From Eledone cirrhosa (taxonomy: Eukaryota), in NCBI GenBank assembly GCA_964016885.1, contig OZ024741.1:310868001-310932000 (forward strand): a stretch of 64,000 nucleotides of DNA, read 5' to 3'. Below, one piece after another: positions 3,228-53,460 of the stretch. Position 1 is the first letter of the stretch. The number at the start of each line of letters is the position of its first letter. The translations under genes were made by a program, and so were the position numbers. The notes under the pieces were generated by a model. It searched no databases. It was not told where the DNA came from and worked only from the letters and a program-made list of their open reading frames with translations.

Positions 3228-3247
3228 TTATTATTATTATTATTATT

Positions 3248-6200
3248 GTTCTTTGAGTCTCAGTCATTGGTGTTAGTTAACTGGAAAGTTTGTTGAAATA
3301 AATATCAAGCCACTACCAGCAGCCTCAGATAGTCAGGACGTATCGGGAGGTTCTTGATGTTCCCAGCAAGCATGCCTTTTGAAGCGTTCCAAAAAGCGTG
3401 AAGGGGCCAATTTTCTTTAACCATCCCTGGAAACTTTTTGAGATAGTACCTAGTGCGCCTATGACAATCGGGACCACTTTGACTTCATGGCTGTTCCAAA
3501 TCCTTTTTACCGCCCACTTTAAGTCCTGGTATCGGTTAATTTTCTCCCTCTCCTTCTCTTACACTCTCGTGTCGAATGGGCAGGCCACATCCACAATCAG
3601 GCACGATCTTTTTTCCTTGTCCAAAACCACCAGGTCAGGTCTATTGTGTTCCAGTTTCTTGTCCGTCTGTATCCTAAAATCCCACAGCACCTTCACCTGA
3701 TCGTTTTCTATCACCGACTTTGGCTTATGCTCATACCACTTCTCAGAATGTGGTAAATTGTTTACTTTGCATAGGTGCCAGTGGATCACCCTGCCCATCA
3801 CATCATGTCTCCAGCCCTTATAGTGAGTCTAGGCTTGGTGCTTACACTCGGATACAATGTGAGCCACAGTCTCCTCTCTCTCTCCACAGATCCTGCAACG
3901 GTGGGCTCGCCTCCTACTTGTAAATATGGTTTTTCAACCACTTCGTTTTGAGCTATTAGCTTTCCTTCTGTAGCCTTTTGAAGGTCTCCTCTTTTAAACC
4001 AGTTCAATATCTGTGGATCTCTGAATTCAGTTTTCTCAAAGAAGGTACTATGAAGGGATTTTTCCTGAAGGCTGCTCTTTCTCCTTGTTGTTATTTCCTC
4101 CTTGGACATCCCCTGGTCTATTGTCCTCTCCTTCAGTACAGTTCTGAGCATTGGCTCCTTACTATCAGTCACGTATTTGTTTAGGTTGTTCTTCTACAGC
4201 TGAACACAGTCCTCTATGCTGATAAGACATCTTCCGCCTTCAGATCTCCTTAAGTAGAGTCTATCGACATCACTCCTCTTGTGGAATATGTTGTAGATAG
4301 TCAATATCTTCCTAGTCTTCCTATCCATTTCTTTTTGTTCAGCAACATTCCATCTCAGATTTCCCGCACTGTACCTAATAATAGACACAGCTCGGGAATT
4401 TACTGCACTTATGGCATTCCTACTGTTCAGATGTGACTTTAATACGCTCCTTACTCTCCGAATGTATTCAGTTCTTATCAATTCCTTCATTTTTTTTGTT
4501 CTTGATGTCATCAGCCGCCAGAACACCCAAATACTTGTATCCTTCTTCAGTGTTAATTTCCTTTATCATCTCGCCTGTTGGTACCTGGATTCCGTTGCTT
4601 CTGCTCAATTTACCCCTATTCATCACAAGGACTTCACACTTACTAATACCAAATTGCATACATATATCATTGCTGAAAATACGGACAGTGTCAACAAGCA
4701 CATCCAACTCCTTCTCACTCTTCCCGAAGAGCTTAAGATCGTCCATGAAGAGGAGGTGATTGATGGTAAGTTCTCCCTTTCCCAACTTGTATCCTGCTCT
4801 CACTTTTCGCAGTATAATGGTCAGGGGCATCAGGGCAAGGACAAACAACAGAGGGGACAGAATATATCCCTGGAAGATACTTCTCTTGATCTTCACGCCT
4901 CCCAAGGTTTCTCCAGCTGATGTTAACTCTGTTTCCCAGGACTTCATACTTTTGCCCAACAACTGTCTGATGTTATCTGCTACCTTGAATATATCCAGGC
5001 TTTTGCTGATCGAAGAATGAGGCACCATGTCAAATGTTTTTTTGTAGTCTATCCATCCATGGCAAGACCAGTGTGTCTCCTCTTGCAATTCCTCATTACC
5101 ATCTTATCAATAAGTAACTGGTCCTTTGTACCACGGGACTACTTTCGGCATCCTTTCTGTTCGTCCGGTAACAAGTTGTTTGTGTGGAGGTGATGGTAGA
5201 TTTCCTCAGACATAATGCTTGTCAACAGTTTCCACATTACGGACAGACATGTGATAGGTCTATAGTTGGTAACATCATTACCCTTGATTCGCTCCTTCAT
5301 TACCTGAACTGTGGTATCTTTTGTCAACCACTCTGGTACCTCACCTTACATCAAGCAGTTATTGGACATGGTTGTCAGTTCCGGGTGGAGGGATGTTATA
5401 TTTTTAATCCAATACCCCTGCACACCATCTGGGCTTGATGATTTCCAGTTGGTTAGTTTTTTGGCCTGCTCCATAAGAGTTTCAACTGTGATACTCAAAT
5501 CAGTCTGTTGGTGTGCCTGTTCACTAATCTCCTTTTGTACTGTCTCAATCCCCACTGCCTGGTCATTATGTTTTACATCCTGCTCCCATATTCCTCTCCA
5601 GAATGTCTTAGTTTGTTCCGCCTCAGGGATCAAGTCGTTGCCTCTTACTTTCCTTTCAAGCTGTCCAAACAGCATCTTCTGGTTGTTGTCCAACATGCGG
5701 TTCTGTCTATACTGACTGACTCTGCTCTCGTATCGCTTAATTTTTGTACTCTTTGCTACAATGCGTTGCTTCAGTTTCTCTATGATAATATTTAGCTTTT
5801 TCCTCCTAGTTTGTACTTTATTTCAAGTATATTTTTAGTGTCTATGTTTTTTAGTGTCCCATTCAGTAGGGACTCAAGCTTTCCAATGTCATTTCTCATT
5901 TCCCTGATTTGACCATTCAGTCGTTTCTTCCACCAAGGTTCTGATCTTTCTTGTGTTTTGTTTCCTCTCGCTTTTATACAGCATTTGCTGTTACTTTGAG
6001 GATATTGTTGCACTGGTGAAGGCTCCTCGCCTCAAGGTATGGGATGACTATGTTTACCTTAGCTGTTGTTTCTTTTAACTTTTTCCTGTCTACAAATCTT
6101 AGGTTCATAGGTCTCCCACTATCATTGTTCAATTCGTCTACCACTAAATTTAGGATGTCAACCAAATCTTGTCCTAGCCCGTCAGCATTCATCTCCTCAG

Positions 6201-6830
6201 TGGCCGTATCTCTGTTCCAGGTATTATTTATCTCAGTATTCATATCATTGTCTGCTTCGGGTGGTTCCTCCGTTCTCTCGACCTCTTCACCTTCATTTCC
6301 CACTGGCTCGTTTGCCAGGCATACTCCACCCTCCATCTCCAAGCTAATCTCTCTGCTCAGTTCCTCCAGTTCCAGCTCGCTTATCCACCCATTAGTTCTT
6401 ATTACCCGAGCCTGCCCGGTCAATTTTTGTTCATCTAATTTAAATAGACCAATCTCGTTCCAGATGTTATGCATCCGTCTCCTATAGCCCCTCTCATTGT
6501 GGTTACTTTTCAGGTAACATTGCATAACAGTTCTATTCAATTCTTTCGTCCAGTTGGTTCTGGTCCCTTTCCTTCTTCTTCTTCCTCCGACACCAGCAGT
6601 ATTTGGTTGACAGCCAGGTCCCTGCTGCTGAGCCAGGGAGCACCTGTTGGGTGAGAGTCTGTCACATGACGTTCTAGTCTCCATTTCACCGTTATTCGAA
6701 CTGTTTAGGTTCGACATTTAAACACGCTTATCGAGGATTGGCGAATGCATGGTTACATAACCACCTGTGGATTCACCGTCTCCGGTGGTTGCGTCGCTCC
6801 ACGTGGCTCTTGTATGGCATTATCACGCTG
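3248..6830 (-). mobile_element. R4/Dong-clade non-LTR retrotransposon (family A), near full length, decayed
   Basis: Single ORF from 6717; YRPITCL, WIDYKK, LLFMDDLKL; C-terminal restriction-like endonuclease NRPDLVV..LIVDVACP; 3' end runs into (AAT)n. Confidence 0.9.
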
Positions 6831-7276
6831 TAGACGAACACAAATAAACAAACAATCAAACAGACAGAAAAAACCTCCCAAAATGAATAAGCATAAGTTT
6901 CATTGTAATGTAGTGTTCGAATGTCTGACTTAGTTTTTCCCTTCCCTTCTCTGTCCCTCCGTTTGTTTCTCTCTTCATTCTTTTGTTTTTTCTTTTGAGT
7001 CGATCTATATATTTTGATGCTTTCCTCTTTTTTAGTAGGAATTCTATAATGTGGTGGCGGTGCTGTGCTAGCAGCAACTAGCAGGAGGCAATGGGAGAGA
7101 ATAGCAGCGGTAGCAATACTGAGGCAGTGGTGGTCGTGATGTGATCGTATTACTGTAGTGAAGGTGTTGTAGCGGTGGTACTAATGAAGGAGTGGTGGCG
7201 GCGGTGATGGGATAGTGGTAGTAATGATGGATGGGCGGCGGCGGTGGTGACTGTAGTGATGGCGTTGTCGTTACTG

Positions 7277-7277
7277 A

Positions 7278-7328
<51 letters not shown>
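7277..7328. repeat. (ATT)n microsatellite
   Basis: Direct sequence; abuts Dong-B 3' end. Confidence 0.95.
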
Positions 7329-7329
<1 letters not shown>

Positions 7330-7662
7330 AGTTGCATTTATCTTGCTCTATGTTCATACCAACCATCACCAAGTCACAACCCGTGACCTCAAGAGACAAC
7401 AAGGTCCGCCATGTTCAAGAAATAACATACATACACACACATGCATCTTTAGGTGTTTAGACTTGTGATGTACTTATATTGACAGAATCTTCCTTAGTAT
7501 ATGGGCAGTTCCCATTAGTACTATCCTTTGTAATTCTCCTATACGCGGGTTTCCTGGTATTAGCGATAAGTAATCATTAGACCCCTAAGGTATCATTCCT
7601 AGAGCGCCTACAACCACTGGTATTGTTTTAGTTCTCAATTTCCACATTTTTCCATTTTCTAT
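7329..7662 (-). mobile_element. R4/Dong family B 3' stub
   Basis: Matches 37413-37745, the 3' end of the long Dong-B copy (KTIPVVVGALG..GTAHILRKILSI). Confidence 0.85.
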
Positions 7663-8178: not shown

Positions 8179-8293
<115 letters not shown>

Positions 8294-9736: not shown

Positions 9737-9925
9737 ATGTTCCCGAAATACGCCGACTTGTTCGTCAGCTACATCGAAGCTCAAATTTTCTCCCAGTATA
9801 CTGCACCTACCCCTGAGCTATACGGCCGTTACATCGAGTATTCTATCGGCGCCACTTCTTTCTCCTACGAACTGCTTGACTCCTCTTTTTCTTTTGTCCA
9901 GTCTTTCCAACCCACCCTTACCTCC
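9737..9925 (+). mobile_element. Penelope-like RT fragment
   Basis: PKYADLFVSYIE..PELYGRYIEY resembles PLE RT P.YANLF..Y.RYIDD; paralog at 44302-44490. Confidence 0.65.
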
Positions 9926-9959
9926 ATTATCTCCTTAACTAGGTTTAACTAGGTATACC

Positions 9960-12425
9960 TAGCAAGGGCAGAGGGAAAAAAGCAATAGCTCATGTTCTTC
10001 GTCGCAAAGATCAGTTGAAGAATGTATATCGGATTACAAGAGATTGTGCTGGAGAAAATCGTGAAATGGTCGAAATGGTAGTGGAACACTTACCCTGTCT
10101 TATGCCGAAATGAAGGAGACATAGAGTACTTACTATGAGAGACTACTGAACGAAGAGAATAAATGTGACAGTAAGGGCATACCGCATGTAGAGCTGACTA
10201 AGGGATCAGCTAAGAAGTTGACAGCAGTGATATAGATAAAGCAATTAAGGACATGGAGGTAGAGAAGGCTACTCGTCCATCTGGTATATTTGTTGAGAGG
10301 CGAAAAGCACCTGGCATTGTAGGATATGTGCTAGTCGGTCATATAGTTAATCAAGTAGTACAAAAAAGGCGTCATACCCAATGTCTGCAGCAGCAAAGTT
10401 ATTGTCAACTTCTACAAAGGCAATGAAGATTCACTAGAGAGAATAAGAACAGGTTTGATTTCGAGTGCTGCATGGCAGGATGAAAATCAATGCTGCGAAA
10501 ACTGAGACTCTCGTCTTCTCAGGAATCTTGTGCTGTACAATCTACATATGAATGGAGTTCCACTGAAACACGGGGAGAAATTCAAGTATCTCGGGGCCAT
10601 GTTCACAAGTGACGAAATGCATGAGGCTGAATTAAGTGCAAGAATTGCACGAGCTGGTGCTGTAATGCGCCGGCTTCAGCAGTCGGTTTCAAAATAAGGG
10701 ATGTAAGTGAAAGGTCTAAACTAGTTATCTTCAGTACGGTATTCGTGTGAACACTCATTATGGTCATGAATCTTGGGTAATGACCTAAAGAATATGATCG
10801 TGGATGCAAGCGTCAGAAATGGTGTTCCTCAAAAAGGTATATAGAGTAACGTTACTCAGTAGGGTGTTTAGCTTGGAGGTCAGGTCTCCTTCCAGGGAGA
10901 ATCGCTACTTCTCAGAATTGAGAGATTATCGATACGATACAATATGCAATTGTTTAGAACGTCTCGGGAAAAAATCGCTAGAAAGATTTTAGTTGTAAAC
11001 GCAACCGGAAGGAAGCCCAGAGAAAGAGACCGCGCAAGATGGTTGGATAACATCCATGAGCTCATCTGGTCGAGATTGGGGATAGAGCCGGATCATTTGG
11101 AGTGGGTTGCTTCTGACAAACCCACTGGAAGGAATGGTTGAAGACTCTTCCCCCAGCCACTACAATCTTAAGAAGAAGAAGAAGAAAAAGAAAAAGAAAA
11201 AGAAAAAAGAAAAAGAAAAAGAAAAAGAAGAAGAAAAAGAAGAATAGTGCCATTGAGTCCCCCTTTATAGTGCGACGACTGGTTGAGAGGTACTTAGTTA
11301 AGTGTAAGCCATTGTATCTGGATTTTGTAGATAGGGAGAATGCCTTTTACAGGTCCCATTCTCTGTAATATGGTGGACACTTAGGAAGTTAGATGTATAT
11401 GAATATCTTGTGAGAGCATTGTGGGCCATGTATAAAAAATCTGGAAGCCATTAGAGTGATGAAGTGCAGTTCGATGTCCACCGGGGCTCAGTCCTTAGTC
11501 CACCCCTATTTGTGACTGTGCTTCACTGTTCTTCACGGAATATTTAAAAACTGGTACTCCGTGGGCGTTCCTATATGCTGATGACCTCTTCCTTAAAATG
11601 AATCCGTAGGACGGTAAGGGACAAAACTTGAAACATGCAAGAACCTAGAGTTGAAATGCTTAAAACTAGTTGCATAAAAGGCAAAAGGGCTAAGTACGAA
11701 AGAGGACAAGAAGGTTATACAATCAGGGAGATGGCTGTGTTTGATATGCCAGAAAATGGTGGGCAGGAGTTCTATAAGGTGCACAGAGTGCAATCGATGG
11801 ACTCACAAGAGATGTGGCTGATGCACAGAAGAAGGGACCCCTAAAAACTTACGTGAAGGATATTCCAGGTAAGCTCCTAGAAATTATCAACAGCCTTTGT
11901 TACTTAGGCGATCAAAATCACAAGTGTGGAGCATACACTGAAAGTGTGACAACCAGGATCAGAACAGGCTTATACCTCTACGAATAACAAGCATTTTCTC
12001 ACCCGGGGGGAAGATAAGACAGTATGATGCCTGTGGGCAGAGGGCAATGCTAAATGGCTGGTAAACGTGGGCCTTAACTACAGAAGACATCCGAAGTCTG
12101 GAGAGAAATTACGACAGTATGTTCCGATTAATGTGTAATGCTAATGTGCATGGATGATGTAGTAGAAATGAACTTAGAAGAAAACTTTATATAAGAGGAT
12201 TTGGATAAAATGTCTAAAAGAGAGATTACTCTGGTATGGATATGTGATACGTATGGAAGACAGCAGCTGAACAAAGAAATGCAGAGCAATCGCAGTGGCT
12301 GGTACACAAGCAAAAGGCAGACCAAAAAAACTTGTGATGACAAAGGATCGAATGGGCTGAAGCTATGCTGTGTTAATGAAGACCCGACCAGAATCATAAG
12401 ATATGACCTGACCCATCCATGAACA
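9960..12425 (+). mobile_element. Degenerate RTE-clade LINE fragments, with an (AAG)n tail at 11170-11243
   Basis: Remnants MKINAAKTE, KFKYLG, ASEMVFL, GRKPR..RWLDNI, LYADDL; paralog at ~44520-46690. Confidence 0.7.
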
Positions 12426-13740: not shown

Positions 13741-13765
13741 ATATATATATATATTAATTCATAAT

Positions 13766-13950
13766 TGTTACTACTTTAGGCACAAGGCCAGCAATTACCC
13801 AGTGCATTACTGGTACTTTATTTTAGCGACCCCGTAAGGATGAAAGGCAAAGTCAACCTCGGCAGGATTTGATCTCAGATCGTAAAGGGACGTAACTATG
13901 CTGGAAAGCATGGCGTCCGACCCTCTACTGATGCTGCCAATCCACCGCCC
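13766..13950 (-). mobile_element. tRNA-derived SINE with 18-bp target site duplication
   Basis: TSD tatatattaattcataat at 13748-13765 and 13951-13968; A-box/B-box-like head; same family at 41898-42077 and 18748-18945. Confidence 0.9.
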
Positions 13951-14000
13951 TATATATTAATTCATAATATTAACAAAATAGATATTCTTGTGATAAATTA

Positions 14001-16863: not shown

Positions 16864-17889
16864 TTAGTTGTTTTTTCCAGGAGGCGGAGGAGGGGGTTGC
16901 TGAGAACTACCACTTGGTTGGTTCTGCATCCACTGACTGTACATAAAAGCCATATTTTGTAAGTTTTGCAAACTCTGTGCACCAGTTCCACTAGCTGCAG
17001 TAGCATTTTGTTGAGTAGTACTTGCCGATTGTGTTGGAGGAGGTGGTGGAGCAGCTCCATAACCATTCATCTGGTAAGAGTTCTGTGGCTTTTGAGACCC
17101 ATACTGTTCAGGTGCTTGTACAGCTTGTGAATTATTCTGAGTGTTATAGTTTGAGTTATTTTGAGTAGGATAACTGGCATTTTGAGATGGATAATTAGAT
17201 TTAGGAACCACATTGCTACCAGTATTATAATTAGGTTTTGAATGTATTCCATAACCACCGGTCTTGATCCCTACACTAGCGCCATAACTGACTACACTAT
17301 TTTGGTTAAAATTACCAGAGTTAGCTGAAAATCGATTTCTTTCAGAACTACCACCTGGCTTAGACCCAAATGATCCTCTAGACTGAGTACCAGCCCCATA
17401 ATTTCCTGAACCCGAAGACCCATAGCCTCCACAAGAACCACCTCCACGATAACGGCCACTACCATAGCTGCTCCCACGAGAACCACCTCCACGATCACCA
17501 CGGCTGCCACTAGATCCAAAGCGGCCACCACTTCCATCATCTCTATCCTTGCCACCTCTGTAGCGACTGCGTCCTTTTCCAAATATTCCTCTTGCACTCT
17601 CTGCCAATTGCATTAATTTAGGATTGATGACTTGGTTAGCTTCTTTAAGCACAGACATAAGGTCTTGTGCTTGTTTCATATTAGCAGGAGTGAAGAAAGT
17701 GTACGCAGTGCCAGTATTGTTGCTGCGAGTAGTTCGCCCAATACGGTGAACATAGTCTTCTGACGTGGCCGGGTAGTCAACGTTTATCACAAATTTAATA
17801 TCATCCACACCTAAGCCTCTAGATGCAACATCAGTAGCAATCATAATTGGTATGCTTCCTGTTCTGAATTCACTTAGCACCCAGTCCCT
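16864..17889 (-). pseudogene. DDX5/DDX17: 5'-truncated intronless retrocopy of DEAD-box helicase p68/p72 (C-terminal half + RGG/QN-rich tail)
   Basis: [54 protein letters not shown]; no motifs I-IV; in-frame TAG just upstream; (TA)n on both flanks. Confidence 0.85.
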
Positions 17890-18945: not shown

Positions 18946-18990
18946 ATACATAATGACAATCTTTCTGTTTCAGGGAACGGTTATTATTAT

Positions 18991-24700: not shown

Positions 24701-24717
24701 TTATTATTATTATTATT

Positions 24718-29073: not shown

Positions 29074-29098
29074 TTATTTTTATTATTATTATTATTAT

Positions 29099-30749: not shown

Positions 30750-30854
30750 TTTCTGTTTTTTTACACGCAGAAATGCCCATTTGTACCGTCCTGTATTGTC
30801 CTGTACTGTCCTTAATGTCTACTTTATGTGAACCCTTGTGGTTAATAAAGAAAA

Positions 30855-30855
<1 letters not shown>
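30750..30855 (+). mobile_element. Tx1 3' UTR stub followed by (ATT)n
   Basis: Matches 3125-3227 and 36765-36862. Confidence 0.8.
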
Positions 30856-30903
<48 letters not shown>

Positions 30904-36862: not shown

Positions 36863-36955
36863 TATTATTATTATTATTATTACAGTTGCATTTATCTTGC
36901 TCTATGTTCATACGAGCAAGGATTCTCCGCCCGATGTTTTCCAGGACTTCATACA

Positions 36956-37003
<48 letters not shown>

Positions 37004-37004
<1 letters not shown>

Positions 37005-37400
37005 GTTCTTTGAGTCTTAGTCATTGATGTTATTTAACTGGAAAGTTTGTTGAAATGAATATCAAGCTGCTACCTGCAGCCTCAGATATTCAGGACGTAT
37101 CGGAGGGTTCTTGCTGTTCCCAGCAAGCATGCCTTTTCAAGTGTTCCAAAAAGCGGGGCTGGACTAATCTTCTTTAACCATCCCTGGAAACTCCTTGAGA
37201 TAGTACCTAGTGCCCCTATGACAATCGAGACCACTTTGACTTCATGGCAGTTCCAAATCCTTTTTACCTCCCACTTTAAGTCCTGGTATCGGTTGATTTT
37301 CTCCCTCTCCTTCTCTTGCACTCTCGTGTCGAATGGGCAGGCCACATACACAATCAGGCACGATCTTTTTTCCTTGTCGAAAACCACCAAGTCAAATCTA
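37004..37400 (-). mobile_element. R4/Dong family A 3' stub
   Basis: RLE C-terminus ..KACLLGTARTLRYVLNI; (ATT)n at both flanks. Confidence 0.88.
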
Positions 37401-37412
37401 TTGTATTATTAT

Positions 37413-40400
37413 TACAGTTGCATTTATCTTGCTTTATGTTCATACGAGTTATCATCAAGTCACAACAAGTGACCTCAAGAGACAACAAGGTCCGCCATGT
37501 TCAAGAAAGAACATACATATTCACACATGCATCTTTAGTGTTTAGACTTGTGATGTACTTATATTGACAGAATCTTCCTTAGTATATGGGCAGTTCCCAT
37601 TAGTACTATCTTTTGTATTTCTCCTATACGCGGGTTTCCTGGGATTTGCGATAAGTAGTCATTAGACCCCTTAGGTATCATTCCCAGAGCGCCTACAACC
37701 ACTGGTATTGTTTTAGTTCTCAATTTCCACATTTTTCCAATTTCTATCTCCAGGTCCTTATACTTGCTCAATTTTTCAAATGTTTTTATAGATACATTCT
37801 TGTCTATTGGAACAGACATATAAATTAGCAGGCATACCCTCTTTTGAAAGTCCTTCAATATTATATCAGGTCTATTTGCATCTATTTTTCGGTCTGTTTG
37901 GATGCTAAAGTTCCACAAGATTGAGATGTGATCTTTTTCAAGTATGGGAGGTGGTTGATGCTCCCACCAATTCTTTTGATGGGGCAGGTCAAAATGCTTA
38001 CACATTATCCAATGTATGTATTATGCAGCTCTGTCATGCCTGTTTAGGTATTCGGTTGGAGCTATAGGACTGCACATTGAAATTATATGGTCGGCATAAT
38101 GGGCTGCATCCATTTTTTATTATGTTGGCTTGGTAATTTTTTTTTGGCAGACACTGATCTTGTGCTGATATAATCAGTCATTCAGTCTACGATTTCAGTC
38201 CAGAGGATGCCAACCACTGATGGGTTAAAGTTTTGTCAACATCAGGATTGTTAGCTCGGTCTGGGTATTTTCCATACAGAGGCTTTTCTTGCCATTTCTT
38301 AGCCAGCTTCTGTAGCAGTTCTTTCTTTGCAGTTACTTTTACCTGCTTTAATTTTTCTGTGTTTTCCATTTCAGCAGTAAATGGGACTTCTGAAATGTGT
38401 AGTCCATTACTGTATCTTTGTGCATCTTTTGTAATGGAGTATGATCTTTTGATGCTTTCGTGTTTCAATACGAGTTTGATCATCCAATCATGTGATTCCC
38501 TTAGATATGTAGATAATCCAATTGTTGCAGTGTTCAACGCAATGTCTAACTGGATTAACCCACGTCCTTCTTCTTTCCTAGGGAGATATATTCTATCTGT
38601 ATCTGCCTTGGGTGATGCACTCTGTGCACGGTTAAGAATTTTCTAATTTTTGTATCGAGCCTACGGATCTCTGTGATTCACCAGTTGATGACATTGTAAT
38701 GGAGTATGATCTTTTGCTGCTTTCGTGTTTCAATACGAGTTTGATCATCCAATCATGTGATTCACTTAGATATGTAGATAATCCAATTGTTGCAGTGTTC
38801 AACGCAATTTCTAACTGGATTAACCCACGTCCTCCTTCTTTCCTAGGGAGATATATTCTATCTGTATCGTCCTTGGGTGATGCATTCTGTGCATGGTTAA
38901 GAATTTTCTAATTTTTGTATCGAGCCTACGGATCTCTGTGCTTGACCAGTTGATGACATTGTAACTGTATGTTACTACTGGTATGGCAAGCGTGTTTATG
39001 GCATCGATCCTATTCCTTGCATTCAATTCCGTTCTTAAGATTGCTCTTACTCTGCGGTAACATTCCTTCCTTATCCTTTCCCTCATTGTCGAGTGCTTGA
39101 TTCCGTCTCCTTCACAAACACCTAGATATTTGTAAGTTTTTTCTTGATCAAGTTCTCTTATCACGTTCCCCCGATCAAGATTAATGTCTGAACTCTTCAG
39201 CAGCTTTCCTCTGGTGAACGTTGCTTTGGCGCATTTATCTAGTCCAAACTCCATTTTAATGTCATCACTGAACTGCTTCACAGTGGATAATAGCCCTTGC
39301 AATTGTTCATCATTTTTTGCAAATAGTTTCAGGTCATCCATGTAGAACAGGTGATTAATGGTTTTGTCTTAGACTTTTTATCCATGTTTTGTTTCATTGA
39401 GCATTTTACTTAATGGTATAAGTGCGATGCAGAATAAAAGCGGTGATAAAGAGTCACCCTGAAAAATTCCACAATTAATATTAACTTCTCCAGCTTCCAG
39501 TGATTTTGTTTCACTATTCAAAAGGAGTGTCGTTTTCCATGTCTTCATACTGAATCACAAAAACCTCCTGACAACGGGGGATATTTTGAAAATTTCTAAA
39601 CATTTTTCAATCCAACTGTGTGGCAAACTATCGAATGCTTTTTTATAATCTATCCAAGCAATCGATAGATTTTTGTGTATATTATGACAATCTTCCAGTA
39701 TAATTTTGTTAACCAGAAGCTGATCCTTACAGCCATATGAGCCTCGTTTACACCCTTTCTGCTCAATGGGAAATAGGTCATTTGTTATCAGGTGGTTATA
39801 TGTGTATTCAGTTAGGACTGATGTTAAAATGTTATACATTGTGGTCAAGCAAGTTATCGGTCTGTAATTTTTGGGATTGTTTGTCTCATCATTCTTCGGA
39901 AGCAGGAATGTAATGCCGTTAACTAGCCATGATGGTATCTTTTCTGGCTCCTTATCTATTTCATTGTAAAGTTGGGCTAACAGCTCATGAGACTCTGTGA
40001 AGGCATTTATCCAAAAGTTTTGTATTTTGTCTTTTCCTGGGGATTTCCATTTGCTGGTTTTTCTTAGAGCCAAGCGCAACTGTTCAACTGTTATATTTTC
40101 TCATGTTTGTTCCTCAAGGTGAGCTGTATCTTTCATTTGTCTGTCTATCCATGGGGCATGTATGTTATGAATTTTTTCTTCGGCCCAGATCTTTTCCCAG
40201 AATTCTTGCACTTCCTCCATGGGTGGTATTGATTTAGCAGTTATTGTTCACTTACCAATTTTTCTGTAGAAGTTTCTTTGGTTGTTTTTGAACATATTAT
40301 TGTCCTTATAGAATCTAGATCGTTTTTCAAAGCGCCTTATACGAGCAGCTTTGGCCGACACTTTTTGCTTGATTATTTCTATCAGCATGTCTATGTCACA

Positions 40401-40579
40401 TGTTGATTTTATACTGTACTTTTTTTTCAATTTTCTAAGTTTAGTTTGTTTAACATGTTCACCTACTTTATAGTTTGTTAAAATTTCTATGTCAGATCGG
40501 AGAAGGTTTATTTGGCGATTGATGTTCTCTTGCCAAGTAGATTTCTTGTGGGAATTCCTTTGTTTTTTCATCTTCACTC

Positions 40580-40581
<2 letters not shown>
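37413..40581 (-). mobile_element. R4/Dong family B, long 5'-truncated copy with ~265-bp internal tandem duplication
   Basis: KSPGKDKI, NYRPITCL, WIDYKKAFDSLPH, MDDLKLF, NRPDII; duplication starts at ~38432 and ~38698; both ends in (AAT)n. Confidence 0.9.
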
Positions 40582-40644
<63 letters not shown>

Positions 40645-40645
<1 letters not shown>

Positions 40646-40907
40646 CTCTGAGTATGTGTCTGTAAATTAAAGGTGGAAAACTGGGAGAGGGCACTTGCCC
40701 TGGTGGTCAGGGCCACTGTGGTCTTTTAATGGGCTTTCTCCACAAATGTCCCTTGGAAGTCTCCCCCCTATTGGGGAATTTTTCTTTGTTATTCTATTTC
40801 AACCTCTGTTTTTTTACACGCAGAAATGTCCATTTGTACCGTCCTGTATTGTCCTGTACTGTCCTTAATGTCTACTTTATGTGAACCCTTGTGGTTAATA
40901 AAGAAAA

Positions 40908-40908
<1 letters not shown>
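40645..40908 (+). mobile_element. Tx1 3' end (severely 5'-truncated) between two (ATT)n tracts
   Basis: Matches 36594-36862; (ATT)n at 40582-40644 and 40908-40956. Confidence 0.88.
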
Positions 40909-40956
<48 letters not shown>

Positions 40957-40958
<2 letters not shown>

Positions 40959-41292
40959 AGTTGCATTTATCTTGCTCTATGTTCATACGAGGCATCACCA
41001 AGTCATAACTCGTGACCTCAAGAGACAACAAGGTCCGCCATGTTCAAGAAAGAACATACGTACTCACACATGCATCTTTAGGTGTTTAGACTTGTGATGT
41101 ACTTATATTGACAGAATCTTCCTTAGTATATGGGTAGTTCCCATTAGTACTATCCTTTGTAATTCTCCTATACGCGGGATTCCTGGTATTAGCGATAAGT
41201 ATTCATTAGACCCCTTAGGTATCATTCCTAGAGCGCCTACAACCACTGGTATTGTTTTAGTTCTCAATTTCCACATTTTTCCAATTTCTATT
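40957..41292 (-). mobile_element. R4/Dong family B 3' stub
   Basis: Paralog of 7329-7662. Confidence 0.85.
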
Positions 41293-43559: not shown

Positions 43560-45633
43560 GCGTAAAGTATGATAGATAACAGAAGACCAAGCAACCGGAA
43601 AAATATAAGGTTTCCAGAAAATAATAAAAGTTATTGCAAATTCTTATAAGTCTCTAAATACAAATTACTAATCAACAAGCCATGAGAGATAACTGCAGAA
43701 AATGAAAGAATAATATTAAGTATGGCATGGATTGATTAGCATGAGATTTTGACAGTGTCACCTACATTCGCATATTGGACACATTAGCCATGAATAAAGT
43801 AACTCTAACAATCGAAATCATTCATCATCTATATCACATGTAAGTAGCAAACAATTCTGCAAATAAATAGAAAAGTTGTACTTATATACAAAGAGACTAT
43901 CCTAGTAAAAAGAAGGAAATTTTAACGGGACACCCACTCATCAATTCTCTCCTATCTAGCACTGAAACCAATAACTTAGATACTGGACAAAACTAGACAT
44001 GAATATACATGGTAGGGTAAGAAAAATATAAATAATTGAAAATGGAAAATCTAAAGCTGCATGCTGCAAACAGAAGTAAATTGAAACACTGGTGGAAAGA
44101 CTACATAGATTCACAAAGGAATTAAGCAGAACTTGAGAGAGCGAACATAATCTTTGATGTCCCAATACGCACAGACGTTAAGATCAAAGACAACTGATCC
44201 GATAATATAGGGAAACAACACAAAGAAAGAGTATTGCCTACTAACTGACGGATATATATATAAGTAGAAAACAAATTAGTGGGATAGACTTGGTAAATTG
44301 AATGTTGCCGAAATACGCCGACTTGTTCGTCAGCTACATCGAAGCTCAAATTTTCTCCCAGTATACTGCACCTACCCCTGAGCTATACGGCTGTTACATC
44401 GAGTATTCTATCGGCGCCACTTCTTTCTCCTACGAACTGCTTGACTCCTCTTTTTCTTTTGTCCAGTCTTTCCAACCCACCCTTACTCCATTATCTCCTT
44501 AACTAGGTTTAACTAGGTATACCTAGCAAGGGCAGAGGGAAAAAAGCAATAGCTCATGTTCTTCGTCGCGAAGATCAGTTGAAGGATGTATATCGGATTA
44601 CAAGAGAGTGTGCTAGAGAAAATCGTGAAATGGTCGAAATGGTAGTGGAACACTTACCCTGTCTTATGCTGAAAAGAAGGACACATAGAGTACTTACTAT
44701 GAGAGACTACTGAACGAAGAGAATAAATGGGACAGTAAGGTCTTACCACATGTAGAGCTGACTAAGGGATCAGCTAAGAAGTTGACAGCAGTGAGATAGA
44801 TAAAGCAATTAGGGATATGGAGGTAGAGAAGGCTACTCGTCCATCTGGTATATTTGTTGAGAGGCTAAAAGCACCTGGCATTGTAGGATATGTGCTAGTC
44901 GGTCATATAGTTACTCAAGTAGTACAAGAAAGGTGTCATACCCAATGACTGGAGCAGCAAAGTTATTGTCATCTTCTACAAGCACTATGAAGATGCACTA
45001 GAGAGAATAAGAACATGTTTGATTTCGAGTGCTGCATGGCAGGATGAAAATCAATGCTGCGAAAACTGAGACTCTCGTCATCTCAGGAATCTTGTGCTGT
45101 GCAATCTATATATGAATGGAGTTCCACTGAAACACGGTTTCAAAAGAAGGGATGTAGGTGAAAAATCTAAACTAGTTATCTTCAGTACGGTATTCGTGTG
45201 AACACTCATTATGGTCATGAATCTTGGATAATGACCAAACGAATATGATCGTGGATGCAAGCGTCAGAAATGGGGTTCCTCCAAAAGGTATTTTGAGTAA
45301 CGTTACTCACTAGAGTGCGTAGCTTGGAGATCAGGTCTTCCTCCAGGGAGAGTCGCTACTTCTCCGAATTGAGAGATTACAGATACGATACTATATGAAA
45401 TTGTTTAGAATGTCTCGGTGAAAAAATCGCTAGATAGATGTTACGGGTAAACGCAACCGGTAGGAAGCCCAGTGTCCGCGCAAGATGGTTGGATAACATC
45501 CATGAGCTCATCTGGTCGAGATTGGGGATAGAGCCGGATCATTTGGAGAGGGTTGCTTCTGACAAACCCACTGGAAGGAATGGTTGAAGATTCTTCCCCC
45601 ACCCACTACAATCTTAGGAAAAAGAAGAAGAAG

Positions 45634-45665
<32 letters not shown>

Positions 45666-46690
45666 GAAGAAGAAGAAAAAAAGAAGAAGAAGAAGAATAG
45701 TGCCATTGATTCCCCCTTTATAGTGCGACGACTGCTTGATAGGTACTTAGTTAAGTGTAAGCCATTGTATCTGGATTTTGTAGATAGGGTGCCATTCTCT
45801 GTAATATGTTGGACACTTAGAACATTAGATGTATATGAATGTCTTGTGAGAGCATTGTGGGCCATGTATAAACAAGTTGGAAGCCAGTAGAGTAATGAAG
45901 TGCAGTTCGATGTCCACCGTGGCTCAGTCCTTAGTCCACTCCTATTTGTCACTGTTCCTCACGGAGTATTTCAAAACTGGTACTCTGTGGGCGTTCCTAT
46001 ATGCTGATGACCTAGTTCTTAAAATGAATCCGTAGGACGGTAAGGGACAAAACTTGAAACATACAAGGACCTAGAGTTGAAATGCCTAAAACTAGTTGCA
46101 TCAAAGGCAAAAGGGCTAATTACGAAAGAGGACAAGAAAGTGATACAATCTGGGAAATGGCTGTGTTCGATATGCCAGAAAATGGAAGATAGCAGCTGAA
46201 CAAAGAAATGCAGAGCAATCGCAGTGGCTGGAACACAAGCAAAAGGCAGAGCACAAATCTTGTGATGACAAAGGATCACATGGGCTGACGCTATGCGGTG
46301 TTAATGAAGACCCGACCAGAATCATAGAAATTATCAACAGCCTTTGTTATTTAGGCGATCAAAATCACAAGTGTGGAGCATACACTGAAAGTGCGACAAC
46401 CAGGATCTGAACAGGCTTATACCTCTACGAATAGAAATGAACTGAGAAGAAAACATTCTATAAGAGGATTCGGATAAAATGTGTAAAAGAGAGATTACTC
46501 TGGTATGGATGTGTGATACGTATGGAAGATAGCAGCTGAACAAAGAAATACAGAGCAATCGCAGTGGCTGGAACACAAGCAAAAAGCGGACCAAAAAACT
46601 TGTGATGACAAAGGATCAAACGGGCTGACGCTATGCTGTGTTAATGAAGACCCGACCAGAATCATAAGATATGACCTGACCCATCCATGA
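43560..46690 (+). mobile_element. Old Dong-like, Penelope RT and RTE fragments (paralog of 9186-12425)
   Basis: Collinear near-identity with unit 1. Confidence 0.7.
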
Positions 46691-46953
46691 ACTACAACCT
46701 CCCTCCTACTAATACTCCCCCCTATCTGTCCACCTCAATGCGGCATCCACTACACATATACCCTCGAGAACCATTCACACACTAAACACCTTAGATATCC
46801 TCACCATTGGCCAATAGTAGCTGCCTTCTATTCTCATTCTTCACACCACTCTACTAGCAAACCTTATCCCTCACTATCCCTTACCCATCTCTCTAACACG
46901 ACCCCAATATCTAGCGACCACATTCTTCGCTACCCCGTCCCTCCCCGTACACT

Positions 46954-48095
46954 AGAAGCTGGATCACTGCAATGCACATCGGCATCTGCTCGGTGCTCAA
47001 GGTTAATGGCCACCTTTTGGAACCGTTTCAGGTCTCCAGATCGGACCGTCAAGGTTGCCCTCTCTCTTCCCTTCTGTACGTATTGATGACTCTCGAGCCT
47101 TTACTGCGGAAGCTAGAGCTGTTGCAGGGCATCCCTCTGGAACCGGGACGCGGAAATGCTGTGTCGACTTATTCGCACAACATCACCGTGATGGTGTCGG
47201 ACACCTCGGAAATTGAGGTTGTCGGCACCTTATTGAAGGAATATGAAAGGTTGACGGGAGCGAATCTTAATTCGGAAAAGAGGGTGAGCTTGCAGCTCGG
47301 CACCTGGAGAGGCAGGTCCATGCCGTCTAACAGTGTCGTGTGGTGCTGGACGCACGGAGAGGTAAAATTGCTCGGATTTTGGTTCGGCCAGACCTCCAGG
47401 TGGAAAAGAATTGAGCCGGTCCATGTGCTTCCAGCACCCTCTACGTGGAGTGTTGGGCATGCGTTGACTAATGATGCGCAGACATTCGCTGAGGCTGCCA
47501 CATCTCCAGACATTCTGCCTAAACGGTGAATAGGTGTGATCGCTGTTTATCTGACGGGCCTTCCCCGCAGCTCGTCTCTTTCACTGAGCTGCAGTCCTGG
47601 CTCAAGAAGAGACCAAGACTGCGTGACTCATTGTCTTCTACCAATCGAGCAATTAGATTAGTGGAACCTCCACTCTCAAGTTCTATAGAGGATTAGTGGT
47701 GGGCAAGATCGACGACACACTCGGAGAGGCTCTGGCTTCGACGAAATCAAACTTACCAGCCTGTTCCGGAGGACTTTTGAGTCGGGGACGATGGATAACT
47801 CTCAGAAATCCCTCGCTATGCAGTGCTACCGGGGGGCACTGCCGGTTCGAGATAAGCTCTACAGGCATGGAAGTGCTGTCAGACGGATCTGCCCGATTAG
47901 CGCACAGAGCGACGAAACCGTTCTGCACGCACTTGTCCAATGTCCGAGCATTACTGACTCGTGGAATTATGGCGAACCGCGGTTGTCGCGTTAAGAACGG
48001 ATCCGGCTATCGGCCGAGTCCATAGTGAAGATCGACCCGCCACTTTCCTTTGGCCAGGAAGAGCAGGCAATTTTCCTGTCTGGTGGCAGTTGCGA
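46954..48095 (+). mobile_element. Tx1-B RT/C-terminal fragment
   Basis: Matches 21698-23065. Confidence 0.85.
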
Positions 48096-48098
48096 ACG

Positions 48099-51000
48099 AG
48101 GTACACTGGCATAAACATTGCACATAAAGGATTAATGGAACATATAAAACTTCACACAGATATTACAGACAAAAATTACTACACCCCACCAACACCAAGA
48201 ACATTACCAAAAAATATTACGATTGTCGAAATTAAACTTGATAACTATAAACAATTAAAACAAAATATTTCCCAACTGCGTTGGTGATTTCATGGAGTAG
48301 CTACTCAAAAGAATCTATACAGATTTCGTCTTGGAGACACCCATGACCAGCCGAAGGGACGATTCTATTATCCCTTCCCAACACGATCAAAGTAAGAGAT
48401 CATTTCTCACTTACCCCGTTCCTCACTCATATGGCCGTACTCTGAATAGGCAGTGTAAATATACGTGGCATGGGGTCATCTTGGAAGCAGGTCACGTGCT
48501 CAACGATCTCAGGTCACTAAACATAGACGTGGTGGACGTCAGTGAGACCAAAATCTCCGAAGCACGAGACTACGCACCGGTCTTTGGCGGCTACGATATA
48601 TACGCATCTCCCAGGCGTCCAGGATCGGGGGGAGGAGTTGCTGTGCTTTTTAGGAGAGGCTTGGATCTCGCCATACGGGCCATCTTCCTGGACCCAGAAG
48701 GTAAGTCGGTGGTGTTGGACCTGACTCGCAGCAAAGGCAATGCTTTCAGGCTAGTAGCCGTCTACGCCTCAACAGGAGCAGGATGGCCATATTTCTTCAG
48801 ACATCAAGACACCTTTCTTGGAACGTCCTGCTCTTTAGTGTTAGTGGGCGACTGATATTGTATCTTAGATGGACGCTGGGATTATGTGGGGCTAGTAGAC
48901 AGGGAAGGAGTGTGTAAAGACCTCAACAACCTGTTCAGACGTTTTAAACTGTCTAACAGGTATCGACTGGATTATCCGAATGTGCCAATGTGGCTTTGGG
49001 GAAAAGGCATTGGGTCATCCAGATCGTATTTAGATAGGGTATTTTGTAGGGAAACAGATAAAGCTAGTGTAGGTTGTCCACAATTTAAAGTAGTCGACTA
49101 CACAGACCACAAATGTGTGATCTGTGAAGTTGACTTAGATAGACTCCATAGGCAAGGGCCCCGCTACTGAAGCTGAACGCGTGGTTCCCGGCGCGCAAAG
49201 ATTACAGTGACCGGATTAGCGAATTAGTTAAGCGTGCGTTGACGGGTGCGATCGTCAACAACAGGTGGCGTTTTACCCTGAAAAGGGCCATTAGAGTAGA
49301 ACCGATAACGTTTAGCAAAGGAGTAGTGATAGAGGAAAATAGAGTAGGTGAGAGTTAGTTAGAAAGCTAGAATAGGCGTTTAGGACAGGCATCGCAACTG
49401 ACGTGCTTGCGGCGAGATTGGCACACAACCAATTATTCAACGCAAAGCATGAAGGCTGCGTTGTCAGAGCTAGAGCACATGTTCTAAGACACGAGGGGAC
49501 GAAAGACGTTCAATCGGCCCGAGTGGCGGAGGCGCGTCGTGGCAACAAATCCACAATCTGGTCTTTGCCTGATCAAAACGGGCGCATGATGCTCAAACCC
49601 GAGCAGATGTGTGCGGCTTTTCAACAGCACTTTGCTCAATTGTTCGGGAGCGGGGGCTGGCCGGGTCGGAGTATGGACTTCGGTGTATACCTCGACAGAC
49701 TGCCGCGGCAGTCGACGACCGCAGTGCAGTACTGCGAAAAGCCGATAACAGTAGATGAAATATGGGAAGCCATGCCTGACTGCACGAGGGGTAAATCGCC
49801 AGGTTTGGATGGTCTGCCTACGAGCTTTATGCGTATATTCCAGAATTGTTCGGCGACCTCTTGGCAGATGTCTACTGCACCTGGCAGCAGAACGTGAGCA
49901 TTCCCAGTTTTGTGAGCCGGGGAGCGGTGGCGCTGCTGAGAAAAGACCCAAACAAGGGGGACGTTATAGACAACTTCAGGCCATAACTCTTCTAAACGCA
50001 GAGTTTAAGATTTTGGCCAAGGTGTTAGCAAAGGGTTTGGCGCTTGTCGTTGATTTGGTGGGTGAGGCGCAGGCATGCACCATTCCGGACATATCCATCC
50101 ACGACAACCTTCATCTCATGCTATACATCATAGAGAGGGTGGTTAAGTAACCTGGCATAGGTGGCGCCCTGATCAACTTGGATCAATCTAAAGCATTTGA
50201 TAGGTCGACCATCGGTACCTGGCGGCGGTCCTCGAGGCGGCCGGCTTCGTGCACGTTTTTCGGGGCTGGATCGCTGCGATGCATAGCGACATCTGCCCAA
50301 ATGTGAGGGTGAATGGTCACCTGTCGCAGCCTTTCAGCATCATGCGCTCGATCCAACAGGTTTGCACCCTCTCGTCCCTCTTGTGTGTACTGGCCGTCGA
50401 GCCGTTACTGCACAAATTGGAGACGAAAAGGGGGCTCCCACGCGAACTGGGATGCGGGAGATCCTTGTTAGTTTACGCTGACTACGGCACCGTGATATGG
50501 TGGAGCACCAAACACGTCCAGATGCTCGGCACCACTCTCAATGAATACGAAACGGTGACAGGAGCAAAGATAAACCAGGAAAAGTCGGCGTGCTTGCGAC
50601 TCGGCACCTGAAGAGGCAAGACCATGGCGTCCGACAGCGTCGTGGGGGGGGGGGGATCGGTGAATGGACCGGTTAAATTGCTCGGAGTCTGGTTCGATCC
50701 GGACCTCCAGATGGAGAAAACCTGGAGCGAGGTGACGAACAGGGTGGCCTCTCTCACCCAGAAATGGGCCGAGAGGTTGCTGTCTCTGAAAGATCGGGCG
50801 GAGGTGGCGAATGCGTACATCGCGTCCGTCATCTGCTACCGCCGCACCGTGGTAGCTTGCCCGCGCCCTACTCTGACCAAAATGGAGCGCCTCCTCTTCC
50901 GCTTTTTATGGAAGGGATATGCTCCCATGGTCAGACGATCCATTTGCTGTCAACACCCGTTGCGTGTAGGACTAGGCATGCCGTGGCTGATGTTGCGCAA

Positions 51001-52140
51001 ACATGCGCTGAGGCTGAGACGTCTCTGGTGATTCCTTGACGGTGAACAGGTGTGGTTGCCGTTTGCCAGACATGTTTTTCCCCAGCTCGTCTCATTAACA
51101 GAGCTGCAGTCCTGGATCAGGAAAAGACCGAGGGATAGCGCTTGGAAGCTGGAATGTCTCCAAGCGCTCACCGCCCTCTACCAGCTGGGCACTTGTATCG
51201 GTGGTACATCCACCTCGGCGAACTATAGAGGGCTAGTGGAGGGAAAGAGCGACGACGTTCTCGAAGCGACCCTGGGCGGCGAAGACGATCAGCTATTCGC
51301 TCTCTTCAAGAGAACTTTCAGACCGGGGCCTATGGGCAACCTCCAGAAATCCCTGGCCTGGCAGTGCTACCGAGGAGCGTTGCCGGTTCGGGATAAGTTC
51401 TACAGGCACGGAGGTGCTGTCAACCGAGCCTGTCCGAGATGCACGCAGGGTGACGAAACCGTGTTGCACGCACTCGTTCTGTGCCCGAGGATTGCTGACT
51501 TGTGGAGCTATGTCGAACAGCTGCTGTCGCGTGTAGGACGGATCCGGTTATCGACTGAGTCCATTGTGCAGATAGCCCCGCCATCCCCCTTTAAAGAGGA
51601 GGAAGGACAGCCAGTTTTCATCTGCCTGGTGCCCATGGCGAAAGAGATTGTGTGGTGGACAAGGTTGAAAGGGTTGTAGACGGACACTTTCCTCTTCGGC
51701 GAATCCCTGATTAACCTTTTCAAGTTTCACTGGAAGAGAAAAATCAGGGTGGAGAGGCAAGTGCCGTCTTCTAGCAAGTTTGTTGAAAGGTGGGTGAATG
51801 TAGCGAGAAAGGTCAGAGTGAATATATGCTTTCAGTTTGAGGAATGGGAAAAAACTGAGACAGGGCGCTTGCCCTGGTGGTCAGGGTTGCCGTGTTCTTT
51901 TGTGTGATTCTCGCCACGAGTAACCCTCGGAGGTTTCCCCTCTATTGGGGAATTTTTCATTGTTTGAATTTTGATTTTTATTGTTTATATATATATATAT
52001 ATGTTTCTACGTATTTTTTTTCTTTTTCGTTCTTATATGAATAATAAAAATCTGTACACGCACAAAACCCACATCGTACCGTCCTGTACCGTCTGTAATG
52101 TTTTTCTTGATGTCAGCCCTTGTGGCCAATAAATAAATCA
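48099..52140 (+). mobile_element. Tx1-C LINE with nearly complete but decayed ORF2 and 3' UTR
   Basis: LVAVYA, YTDHK, KSPGLDGLP, VYADY, CPRC..ETVLH; (ATT)n tail. Confidence 0.9.
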
Positions 52141-52153
52141 TTATTATTATTAT

Positions 52154-53460
52154 TGTCGACCGACGTAGGAAATCGTATTATCGTAAGCTCCACAAAGGTT
52201 TGTTGTTTTCAGTTGTTTCAAATTGCCAGTTATGGAAAATGTTTGTGTTTATAATTGTTTATAAGTTCACATATATGACCTCACTGAGAATAGGCAGCAT
52301 AAATGCGCGAGGCCTGGGGTCGTCATGGAAGCAGGGCCACCCGATCACCGACCTCAGGTCACTAAACATAGATGTGGTGGCCATCAGCGGGACCAGAATC
52401 TCCGAAGCATGAGCCTTCGCACCGATCTTCGGCGGCTACGATGTGTACGCATCTCCCAGTCGTTCTGGTTCGGGGGCGGAGAGGAGTTGCTGTGCTTTTT
52501 CGGAGAGGTTTGGATCTCACCATACGGGCCATCCTCCTGGACCTAGAAGGTAAGTTGGTGGTGCTGGACGTAACAAGCGGAGATGGGCAAGCTTTCAGGT
52601 TAGTGGCCGTCTATGCGCCGACAGGAGCAGGGCGGCCTGATTTCTTCCGGTGTCTGGAGAACTTTCTTGGAACGTCCCACCCTGTAGTGTTAGTGGGCGA
52701 CTGGAACGGGATCTTAGATGCACGCTGGGACTGTGTGGGATTAGCGGATAGGTCTGACAGGTACCGTCTGGATTTCTCGAATGTGTCAATGTGGACATGG
52801 ACAAACCGCATCGGGTCATCTAGATCATATCTAGATAGGGTATTTTGTAGGGAAATAGATAGGTCTAACAGAGGTTGTCCACATTTCAAAATAGTCGACT
52901 ACTCGGACCAAAAATTTATGATCTGTGAGGTTGACTTAGATAGGCTTCATAGACAGAGATCCGGCTACTGGAAGCTAAATGCGTCATTAACAGCGCTTAA
53001 GGCCTACAGAGACCGGATTAGCGAACTAGTTAAGCGAGCGTTGACGGAGGTCCATCCTCAACAACAAATGGTGGTTTGCTCTGTAGAGAGCGATTAGAAT
53101 AGAGTCCATTAGGTTTAGTAAGGCTTTAGAAATAGAGAAAAATAGAGCAGAAGGAGGACTGGCTATAAAATTAGACGAGGCGCTTAGCAAAGGCATCGCG
53201 ACCGACGTACTTGCGGCGGAATTGGCCCTTGATTAATTCTTCAATGCAAAGCACGAAGGCTGCGTTGTCAGAGCTAGGGTGCTGGCTCTTAGACACGAGG
53301 AGTCGAAAGCCGTTCAATTGGTCCCTTCAACGAGTCGTGGCAACAAAGCCACGATCCGGTCTTGGTGGACCAAGACGGGTGCATGCTACTCGATTCCGGG
53401 AAACTGTGCGAAGCTTTTCAGCGACACTTCGCTCAGCTGTTCGGGGGTAGCGGCGGTGCA
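52154..53460 (+). mobile_element. Tx1-A fragment (5' UTR joined directly to ORF2 ATG; EN domain)
   Basis: 52155-52275 matches 24720-24838, then ATGACCTCA; fused to Dong-A at 53460. Confidence 0.85.

Follow-up and report, generated by a model that had tools for sequence, protein, structure and literature searches.

Tx1-like and Dong-like LINEs appear to share (ATT)n microsatellites as insertion targets, on opposite strands, in Eledone cirrhosa

The published accounts drawn on here, each in part, describe several retrotransposons lacking long terminal repeats (non-LTR elements) with simple-repeat targets. Microsatellite-specific long interspersed nuclear elements (LINEs) of the Tx1 clade include Kibi, in (TC)n, Koshi, in (TTC)n, and crocodilian families in (TTCC)n/(TTTC)n, and a short interspersed nuclear element (SINE), Tx1-Mar/SINEU, has a target preference in common with a Tx1 LINE (PMC4494074). 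Dong of Bombyx mori, DongAg, and the snail element DongBg are TAA-microsatellite-targeted elements of the R4 lineage (PMC3812793, PMC3774820), and B. mori Dong carries a self-cleaving ribozyme resembling that of hepatitis delta virus (HDV) at its 5' end (PMC3774820). SART and TRAS of B. mori occupy (TTAGG)n telomeric repeats in opposite orientations, forming mixed arrays (PMC7265360, PMC10088271). Dong-R4 and L1-Tx1 elements are described as abundant or recently active in cephalopods, in the text seen without target analysis (PMC8967140, PMC10294476, PMC13282606); the octopus repeat survey among these reports Dong-R4 as abundant and recently active, and its text as seen gives family counts, the words "target" and "nested" being absent (PMC13282606). 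Here, a stretch of 64,000 nucleotides from Eledone cirrhosa (contig OZ024741.1, positions 310,868,001 to 310,932,000; the window) is analyzed, in which Tx1-like (Tx) and Dong-like LINEs lie antiparallel between ATT repeats. The data suggest, with a probability of roughly 0.8, that Tx1-like LINEs with an apurinic-type endonuclease (APE) and two Dong-like families with a restriction-like endonuclease (RLE) insert into the same (ATT)n tracts on opposite strands, each insertion leaving two reusable tracts.

Strand polarity and target specificity

Tx1-like sequence covered 22,817 bp of the plus strand of the window and none of the minus strand, while Dong-like sequence covered 18,034 bp of the minus strand and none of the plus strand; the protein level agreed. 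Open reading frames (ORFs) on the plus strand contained APE, reverse transcriptase (RT), and zf-RVT domains, and those on the minus strand contained RT and zf-RVT domains. Sixteen tracts of (ATT)≥3 were present on the plus strand and one of (AAT)≥3. The six surviving Tx 3' ends (3226, 24699, 30855, 36863, 40908, and 52139) all continued into ATT, and eight Dong 3' ends continued into AAT when read on the Dong strand. Two Tx/Dong contacts, at 25846 and 53457, are deletion junctions with no ATT tract.

The same rule was observed across the genome. The exact 30-base head of the young family TxA occurred in 1,570 copies, of which 1,533 (97.6%) lay directly after ATTATTATT; the four exceptions inspected all still had short or interrupted ATT tracts. 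Sampled heads of TxA (30/30), TxC (30/30, five of them local and two duplicates of each other), TxB (1/1), TxE (7/7), and TxF (2/2) also followed ATT. The ATT at a full-length head might have come with the element itself; 5'-truncated copies were therefore scored, at 267 of 384 loci, with the exclusion of loci in arrays, of exceptions selected as such, and of short stretches at ends. Truncated Tx junctions were ATT-like in 21/57 cases (37%), with none showing only the opposite polarity. Since an ATT-like 9-mer was found at 0.8% of random positions, this is an enrichment of about 47-fold. Truncated Dong junctions were AAT-like in 45/79 cases, one showing only the opposite polarity, and 77/79 Dong 3' ends were in AAT polarity. 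In an evenly spaced sample of 60 stretches of 10 kb (600 kb), Tx made up 4.8%, Dong 5.4% (together about 10%), and the SINE described below 2.5%. Among the 60 tracts scored there, contacts were in the sense orientation for Tx in 9/10 cases and antisense for Dong in 20/21, the exception being one mixed AAT/ATT tract; 28/60 tracts had no recognized neighbor. A target preference has been defined as more than 20% of flanks being of one type (PMC4494074), and the Tx lineage exceeds this value with 97.6% of heads and 37% of truncated junctions. Its target is (ATT)n, not a pyrimidine repeat of the Kibi/Koshi type. Tracts are also supplied by another dispersed repeat, which ends in ACAATAATTTC followed by (ATT)n (L211, L221, L229, L158, and L024).

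The ATT at Tx heads might instead belong to the element, with Tx carrying its own ATT at both ends and inserting nonspecifically in AT-rich DNA, so that only Dong targets tracts. An ATT leader on the RNA could give the near-perfect register of ATT followed by G at full-length heads, 63% of truncated Tx junctions lacked ATT, and a few insertions lay at non-repeat sites (L319, L304, L022, and L006). This explanation was considered improbable, since 23 of 29 TxA 5' tracts were preceded by SINE, Tx, or truncated Dong copies that end in their own ATT tracts, truncated heads were strongly enriched for ATT, and the off-target sites, all of which start with ATT-like bases, gained no repeat.

A LINE that uses target-primed reverse transcription cuts the strand to which the 3' end of its own RNA is complementary. 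On a shared tract, the nick of TxA would fall on the AAT strand, which would pair with AUU, and that of Dong on the ATT strand, which would pair with AAU. Nicking of opposite strands would therefore produce the antiparallel order without any cooperation between the clades.

An earlier note on this DNA had placed all Tx copies with a recognizable ORF2 or 3' UTR on the plus strand, ending in (ATT)n where the 3' end survives, and the Dong copies on the minus strand, ending in (AAT)n, as the coverage confirms, and its eight named tracts exist to within 1 to 2 bp. Its proposal that one tract can be the tail of both Tx and Dong holds genome-wide with duplicated junctions counted once. The TxA 5' flanks, which it had named as a possible refutation of (ATT)n targeting by the Tx1-like lineage, instead agree with it, and both ends of the Dong copies agree with TAA targeting by two Dong-like families. 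The orientation bias likewise proved independent of duplicated junctions, as it persisted in the evenly spaced sample. The statement that Tx 5' ends adjoin ATT was correct for the named heads and needs a qualification at 40582-40644, since the Tx piece after this tract (40581-40643) is a 5'-truncated 265-bp 3' untranslated region (UTR) and not a full head.

Re-use and renewal of the tracts

To score re-use, 30 position-ordered young Tx tails drawn from 3,270 were read. Another member adjoined the tail in 21/30 cases, namely an antisense Dong tail in 13, a sense Tx head in 6, and a SINE in 2, with nothing recognized in the other 9. A member was found upstream of TxA heads in 23/29 cases, whereas among 60 background tracts the number was 18 by the library and 24 by eye (P of 1e-5 to 6e-4); this position was taken by the tails of SINEs or of Tx copies and by truncated Dong copies. 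Adjacent pairs of complete young TxA copies differed by 22, 49, and 34 bases, which ranked at 4%, 66%, and 28% among unrelated pairs. As neighboring young copies were mostly no closer than random pairs, most chains grew by separate insertions, and the origin of tandem TxA arrays as local duplicates was mostly rejected. Re-use was also visible within the local duplication: the tract between the 400-bp Dong-A piece and the 335-bp Dong-B piece was empty in the unit at -45 kb, was occupied by two SINEs in that at -20 kb, and contained a young 3.2-kb Dong-B and an older-looking Tx piece in the window copy. Outside the duplication, chains were a few elements long in the stretches read, and the "runaway" arrays of the earlier note are therefore too strong a description.

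Among 42 full-length TxA copies, the 5' tract averaged 9.4 units and the 3' tract 16.0, a sum of ~25, whereas 115 background tracts had a median of 4 units, a length-weighted mean of 9.4, and a maximum of 24. One tract is thus turned into two at insertion, neither of them shorter than normal. Given summed flanks above background and independent adjacent insertions, target renewal is likely. With every insertion, one tract would be divided into two of full size, open to both clades and to the SINE.

Where the additional units come from was addressed at informative sites. Insertions off the repeat showed target duplications of 8 to 18 bp without a repeat tail (L006, L022, and L319) or a small deletion (L304). 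In four copies (T1_1, L179, L180, and L291), an interruption in the 3' tract was mirrored in the 5' tract, with 9 to 17 pure units after the interruption on the 5' side and no extra 3' units. Judged from these sequences, the mirrored interruptions would need a long duplication or, alternatively, RNA with an ATT leader. A net gain of ATT units would then come at least partly from head-side duplication of the target, of 6 to 18 bp and up to the 34 to 66 bp of mirrored tract. Tail synthesis may be a further source, given the long 3' tracts; 3' tracts of 3 to 5 units were rare, as would be expected if tails are synthesized or if long tracts are preferred. In a separate group of full-length Tx copies (L325-L340), a pure ATT tract at the 5' end was accompanied by a single ATT and then (CTT)14-52 at the 3' end, beyond which an RTE-like end, labeled by eye, was seen in three cases.

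It is also conceivable that both clades target the tracts and that insertion does nothing more than split them with a short duplication, giving no net renewal. The short duplications at non-repeat sites and the informative sites without added 3' units agree with this. It was regarded as unlikely on balance, because the summed flanks of 25 units exceed the longest of the 115 background tracts and because the mirrored interruptions are followed by long pure runs on the 5' side; moreover, a bare split would by itself double the number of targets.

Several observations count against shared targeting with renewal. With respect to targeting, 36/57 truncated Tx junctions were not ATT-like, many but not all of these being internal deletions or chimaeras, and one young copy (L288, 99.9%) has a non-ATT 5' flank. 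With respect to renewal, 5' and 3' tract lengths were uncorrelated, and duplication of the whole tract at every insertion was unsupported (P of 0.23, without length correlation); the excess could reflect preferential use of long tracts, or slippage after insertion, and not gain. Early 3' interruptions were not mirrored 5' in L176, L356, and L363, nor in the full-length copies with a single ATT (46 in the genome, of which a selected set of 20 was read). Finally, one of the three complete tandem pairs (T1) and one of 11 partial neighbors (L169), closer than all others, were unusually close, so that some tandem copies may be local duplicates, and the enrichment of neighbors could partly be retention in gene-poor DNA. 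Shared targeting with renewal remains the preferred interpretation. The self-renewing target of the earlier note stood in so far as element-flanking tracts are re-used, and failed in naming each new tail as the renewing step, since at informative sites the target was duplicated without added 3' units.

That note had described a two-clade system. Tx and Dong were upheld, and the SINE was missed as a third member. The 3' end of the SINE has the same hairpin with a CUUGU loop as the Tx families, with the second pair reversed: in a census selected on the loop, this pair was C-G in 105/108 Tx ends and G-C in 105/112 SINE ends. Full SINEs followed ATT in 34/89 cases and only AAT in none. Because hairpin and polarity match those of Tx, the SINE is likely mobilized by the Tx enzyme, on which it would depend. 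The SINE copy in the window (13745-13970) has a flanking duplication of ~19 bp at an AT-rich non-repeat site and no ATT tail.

Likeness was also found at the 5' ends. In alignment with the Dong-A head, the first 90 bases of TxA, TxB, TxE, and TxF each outscored all of 300 shuffles; TxC showed no clear likeness, with a result of 9 in 300 shuffles. The common core, within the first 70 bases, consists of a hairpin, GTAAG, and a T-rich run (window 18992, 24718, 30904, and 57995 on the minus strand; L020, L021, and L188). GTAAGT in the heads matches a splice donor. This motif may represent promoter or splice-donor function, convergence, or exchange, with AT-richness contributing. A wider proposal, of a three-member guild that makes its own microsatellite target at ~15 ATT units per insertion, makes up >10% of the 3-Gb genome, and uses a common or exchanged LINE head module working from the flanking tract, is tentative and rather doubtful as a whole.

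Element structure and organization of the locus

TxA is a 6.0-kb element (20 copies) with an ORF1 of ~700 codons containing CX2CX4HX4C and an APE-RT-zinc ORF2. In a protein search of the genome, about 40 of the 150 matches listed had open frames of 1,195 to 1,205 codons. The median difference among 24 complete copies was 42 bases, and two copies on different chromosomes differed by 4. Tx ORF2 has an N-terminal APE, an RT, and a C-terminal zinc-binding domain, as expected for the Tx1 clade (PF03372 at 8e-15, PF00078 at 6e-29, and PF13966 at 8e-8 in the young copy L167). The APE motifs align with the endonuclease (EN) of L1, with the EN hairpin loop gap-free against that of L1, and among solved structures the RT was nearest to human L1 ORF2p (E of 1e-51; R2, 2e-21). 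The sole eukaryote-named homologue was "Transposon TX1 uncharacterized 149 kDa protein" (32%, E of 7e-87), and a search of protein representatives returned unnamed relatives only. Tx1-clade ORF1 carries a CCHC zinc knuckle; despite the motif above, no Pfam knuckle matched Tx ORF1 at E<0.1. The plus-strand lineage is therefore described as Tx1-like, a putative member of that clade.

At least five different 5' heads (TxA, TxB, TxC, TxE, and TxF) were found, each beginning with G after ATT. TxA and TxC have ORF2 and the 3' UTR in common and different 5' UTR/ORF1 modules (window 24718-25846 versus 30904-33288; L199-L200), which suggests swapping of 5' modules. AATAAA lies ~10 bases ahead of the ATT tract at Tx 3' ends (for example, at 36846-36863), and no poly(A) tail was seen in any Tx copy read. 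When the 3' end of young TxA was used as the query at the DNA level, no candidates came up, contigs of four runs compared with TxA gave nothing on transcript ends, and folding z-scores of 3' ends and heads were unremarkable.

The Dong-like elements have a single ORF with RT followed by CCHC and PD-(D/E)xK-like RLE motifs (read in L181/L182); no Pfam match to APE was found in it. The RT was closer to R2 (5e-27) than to L1 (3e-15), with no clade names on the homologues among 120 listed. Dong-A and Dong-B are ~41% alike by a proxy comparison. About 34 of the 150 Dong-B matches listed had a 1,216-codon open frame, and none of 128 Dong-A matches exceeded 1,073 codons. Most long Dong-A frames (972 codons; L181-L192) end just past a (GA)n run within the sequence that codes for the zinc knuckle, a break common to close relatives 0.7 to 1.2% apart in a set biased by selection for frame length. 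With regard to an HDV-like ribozyme, no Rfam ribozyme matched in eight loci, and a simple descriptor of the core found none in four Dong-A and five Tx heads, both without a positive control.

The features of the window are listed in Table 1.

Table 1. Elements and ATT tracts in the window, in window coordinates
Position	Strand	Feature
1-3226	+	Decayed Tx1-like LINE, APE-RT ORF2, internal deletions; TxC-type head starts 546 bp before the window
3227-3247		(ATT)7, Tx tail/Dong-A tail, tail-to-tail; one paralogue at -81 kb
3248-7276	-	Dong-A, R4/Dong-like, RT + CCHC + RLE, near full length, decayed
7283-7327		(ATT)15, Dong-A 5' side/Dong-B tail
7328-7662	-	335-bp 3' fragment of Dong-B that anchors the duplicated unit; same flank in 6 copies
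13761-13960	-	SINE, 3' end with CUUGU hairpin common to Tx families
18983-18991		(ATT)3 ahead of TxB head; three upstream paralogues
18992-23230	+	TxB family copy, 3' end lost
23231-24699	+	Deleted Tx copy with end of ORF1, start of ORF2, and second type of 3' UTR
24700-24717		(ATT)6, Tx tail/TxC head; paralogue of 52140
24718-25846	+	TxC head and ORF1 remnant, ending at deletion junction
25846-29073	-	Dong-A, 3' end deleted
29082-29099		(ATT)6 between two Dong-A copies
29100-30706	-	Dong-A 3' half
30752-30855	+	TxA 3' end fragment
30856-30903		(ATT)16, Tx tail/TxA head
30904-36863	+	Full-length decayed TxA, 89% to young open-frame family
36864-36881		(ATT)6, TxA tail/Dong-B tail; two paralogues
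36882-37404	-	75-bp Dong-B tail piece, (ATT)16 at 36957-37004, 400-bp Dong-A 3' piece
37405-37413		(ATT)3, site filled after duplication (versus units at -45 kb and -20 kb)
37414-40580	-	Young Dong-B, 5'-truncated, 97-98% to copies elsewhere
40581-40643		(ATT)21, Dong-B 5' truncation/truncated Tx
40644-40908	+	Tx 3' UTR piece
40909-40956		(ATT)16, Tx tail/Dong-B tail
40957-41291	-	Dong-B 335-bp 3' fragment, unit anchor
46954-52139	+	TxB fragments, then Tx ORF2 copy with second 3' UTR type, 81% to young TxA
52140-52154		(ATT)5, Tx tail/TxC head; paralogue of 24700
52155-53456	+	TxC head and APE region, deleted
53457-57995	-	Dong-A with 5' head, 3' end deleted
58013-58374	-	ATT tract, interrupted, and 335-bp 3' fragment of Dong-B as unit anchor

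In the 264 kb around the window, a tandem unit of 25 to 30 kb was found in at least five copies, from -100 kb to +58 kb relative to the window (C2:310.77-310.93 Mb). It contains the last exon of DDX5, the SINE, TxB, TxC, TxA, and Dong pieces; numerous internal deletions are present, and at one place the DDX5 3' region is locally inverted. The local density is inflated because the window sits in this duplication, and the size of the array here is partly due to it, besides insertion. The polarity and specificity could in principle be mimicked if the array were a segmental duplication of a few ancestral junctions. In favor of this, 7 of the 13 window tracts tested have same-junction paralogues within the 264 kb, including five of the eight tracts named in the earlier note, and the junctions at 24700 and 52140 are one and the same, duplicated. 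The rule nevertheless holds at the TxA heads genome-wide, as well as in the evenly spaced sample and an inverted cluster that lies +126 to +147 kb from the window. Duplication as the sole cause was therefore rejected as very improbable, and it stands as an explanation of local copy number.

The DDX5 last exon (16864-17889, minus strand) has 80% identity to DDX5 of Octopus bimaculoides and 69% to a cuttlefish protein. It is open in the window copy, and the paralogues at about -8, -35, -64, and -97 kb each have a stop; the exon copies are 95 to 99% alike versus 85 to 96% for neighboring element copies. Upstream DDX5 exons were not found in the 264 kb, nor were tRNA genes in the window. The regions 9900-12400 and 43750-46950 hold decayed bits of other LINEs of the duplicated unit without a tie to ATT tracts, among them a piece, terminated by (AAG)n at 11170 and at 45618, that we take to be RTE-like.

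Relation to known systems

In the literature covered, no ATT-specific Tx1 element was found, although Repbase and the supplements of PMC4494074, which lay outside this coverage, may list one; nor was any target sharing between Tx1 and Dong, or any APE/RLE pair on one microsatellite. Each ingredient is known, from TAA-targeted Dong and microsatellite-specific Tx1 to SART/TRAS, and the new part would be the common target across clades together with a likely positive feedback. With an APE endonuclease that is young, intact, and almost absolute in its choice of a simple-repeat target, beside an RLE enzyme on the other strand, nuclease convergence would become testable with natural copies. LINEs that both create and consume microsatellites would provide a positive-feedback route for filling gene-poor cephalopod DNA. 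A LINE whose specificity for an abundant non-coding repeat reaches 97% is also a candidate where genes are to be inserted at a directed site.

As far as the sources consulted describe them, Kibi and Koshi resemble the Tx lineage in an APE-RT ORF2 of the L1 group, a zinc-knuckle ORF1, microsatellite insertion, and a SINE with the same target preference. The present lineage differs in its (ATT)n target, its mollusc host, its thousands of young copies, and a target held in common with an RLE clade. The Dong-like elements agree with described Dong elements in the single RT-CCHC-RLE ORF and in TAA/AAT on the sense strand at both ends. They differ in comprising two families of ~41% likeness, in that no HDV-like 5' ribozyme core was found, unlike in B. 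mori Dong, and in their co-occupation with an APE element, which is not described for Dong in those sources. SART and TRAS offer the closest parallel in arrangement, as two non-LTR families in opposite orientations within one simple repeat, forming mixed arrays. However, both are APE elements of the R1 clade that carry poly(A) tails and sit at telomeres, whereas the partners here belong to different endonuclease classes and their target is a dispersed microsatellite that reappears on both sides of each copy.

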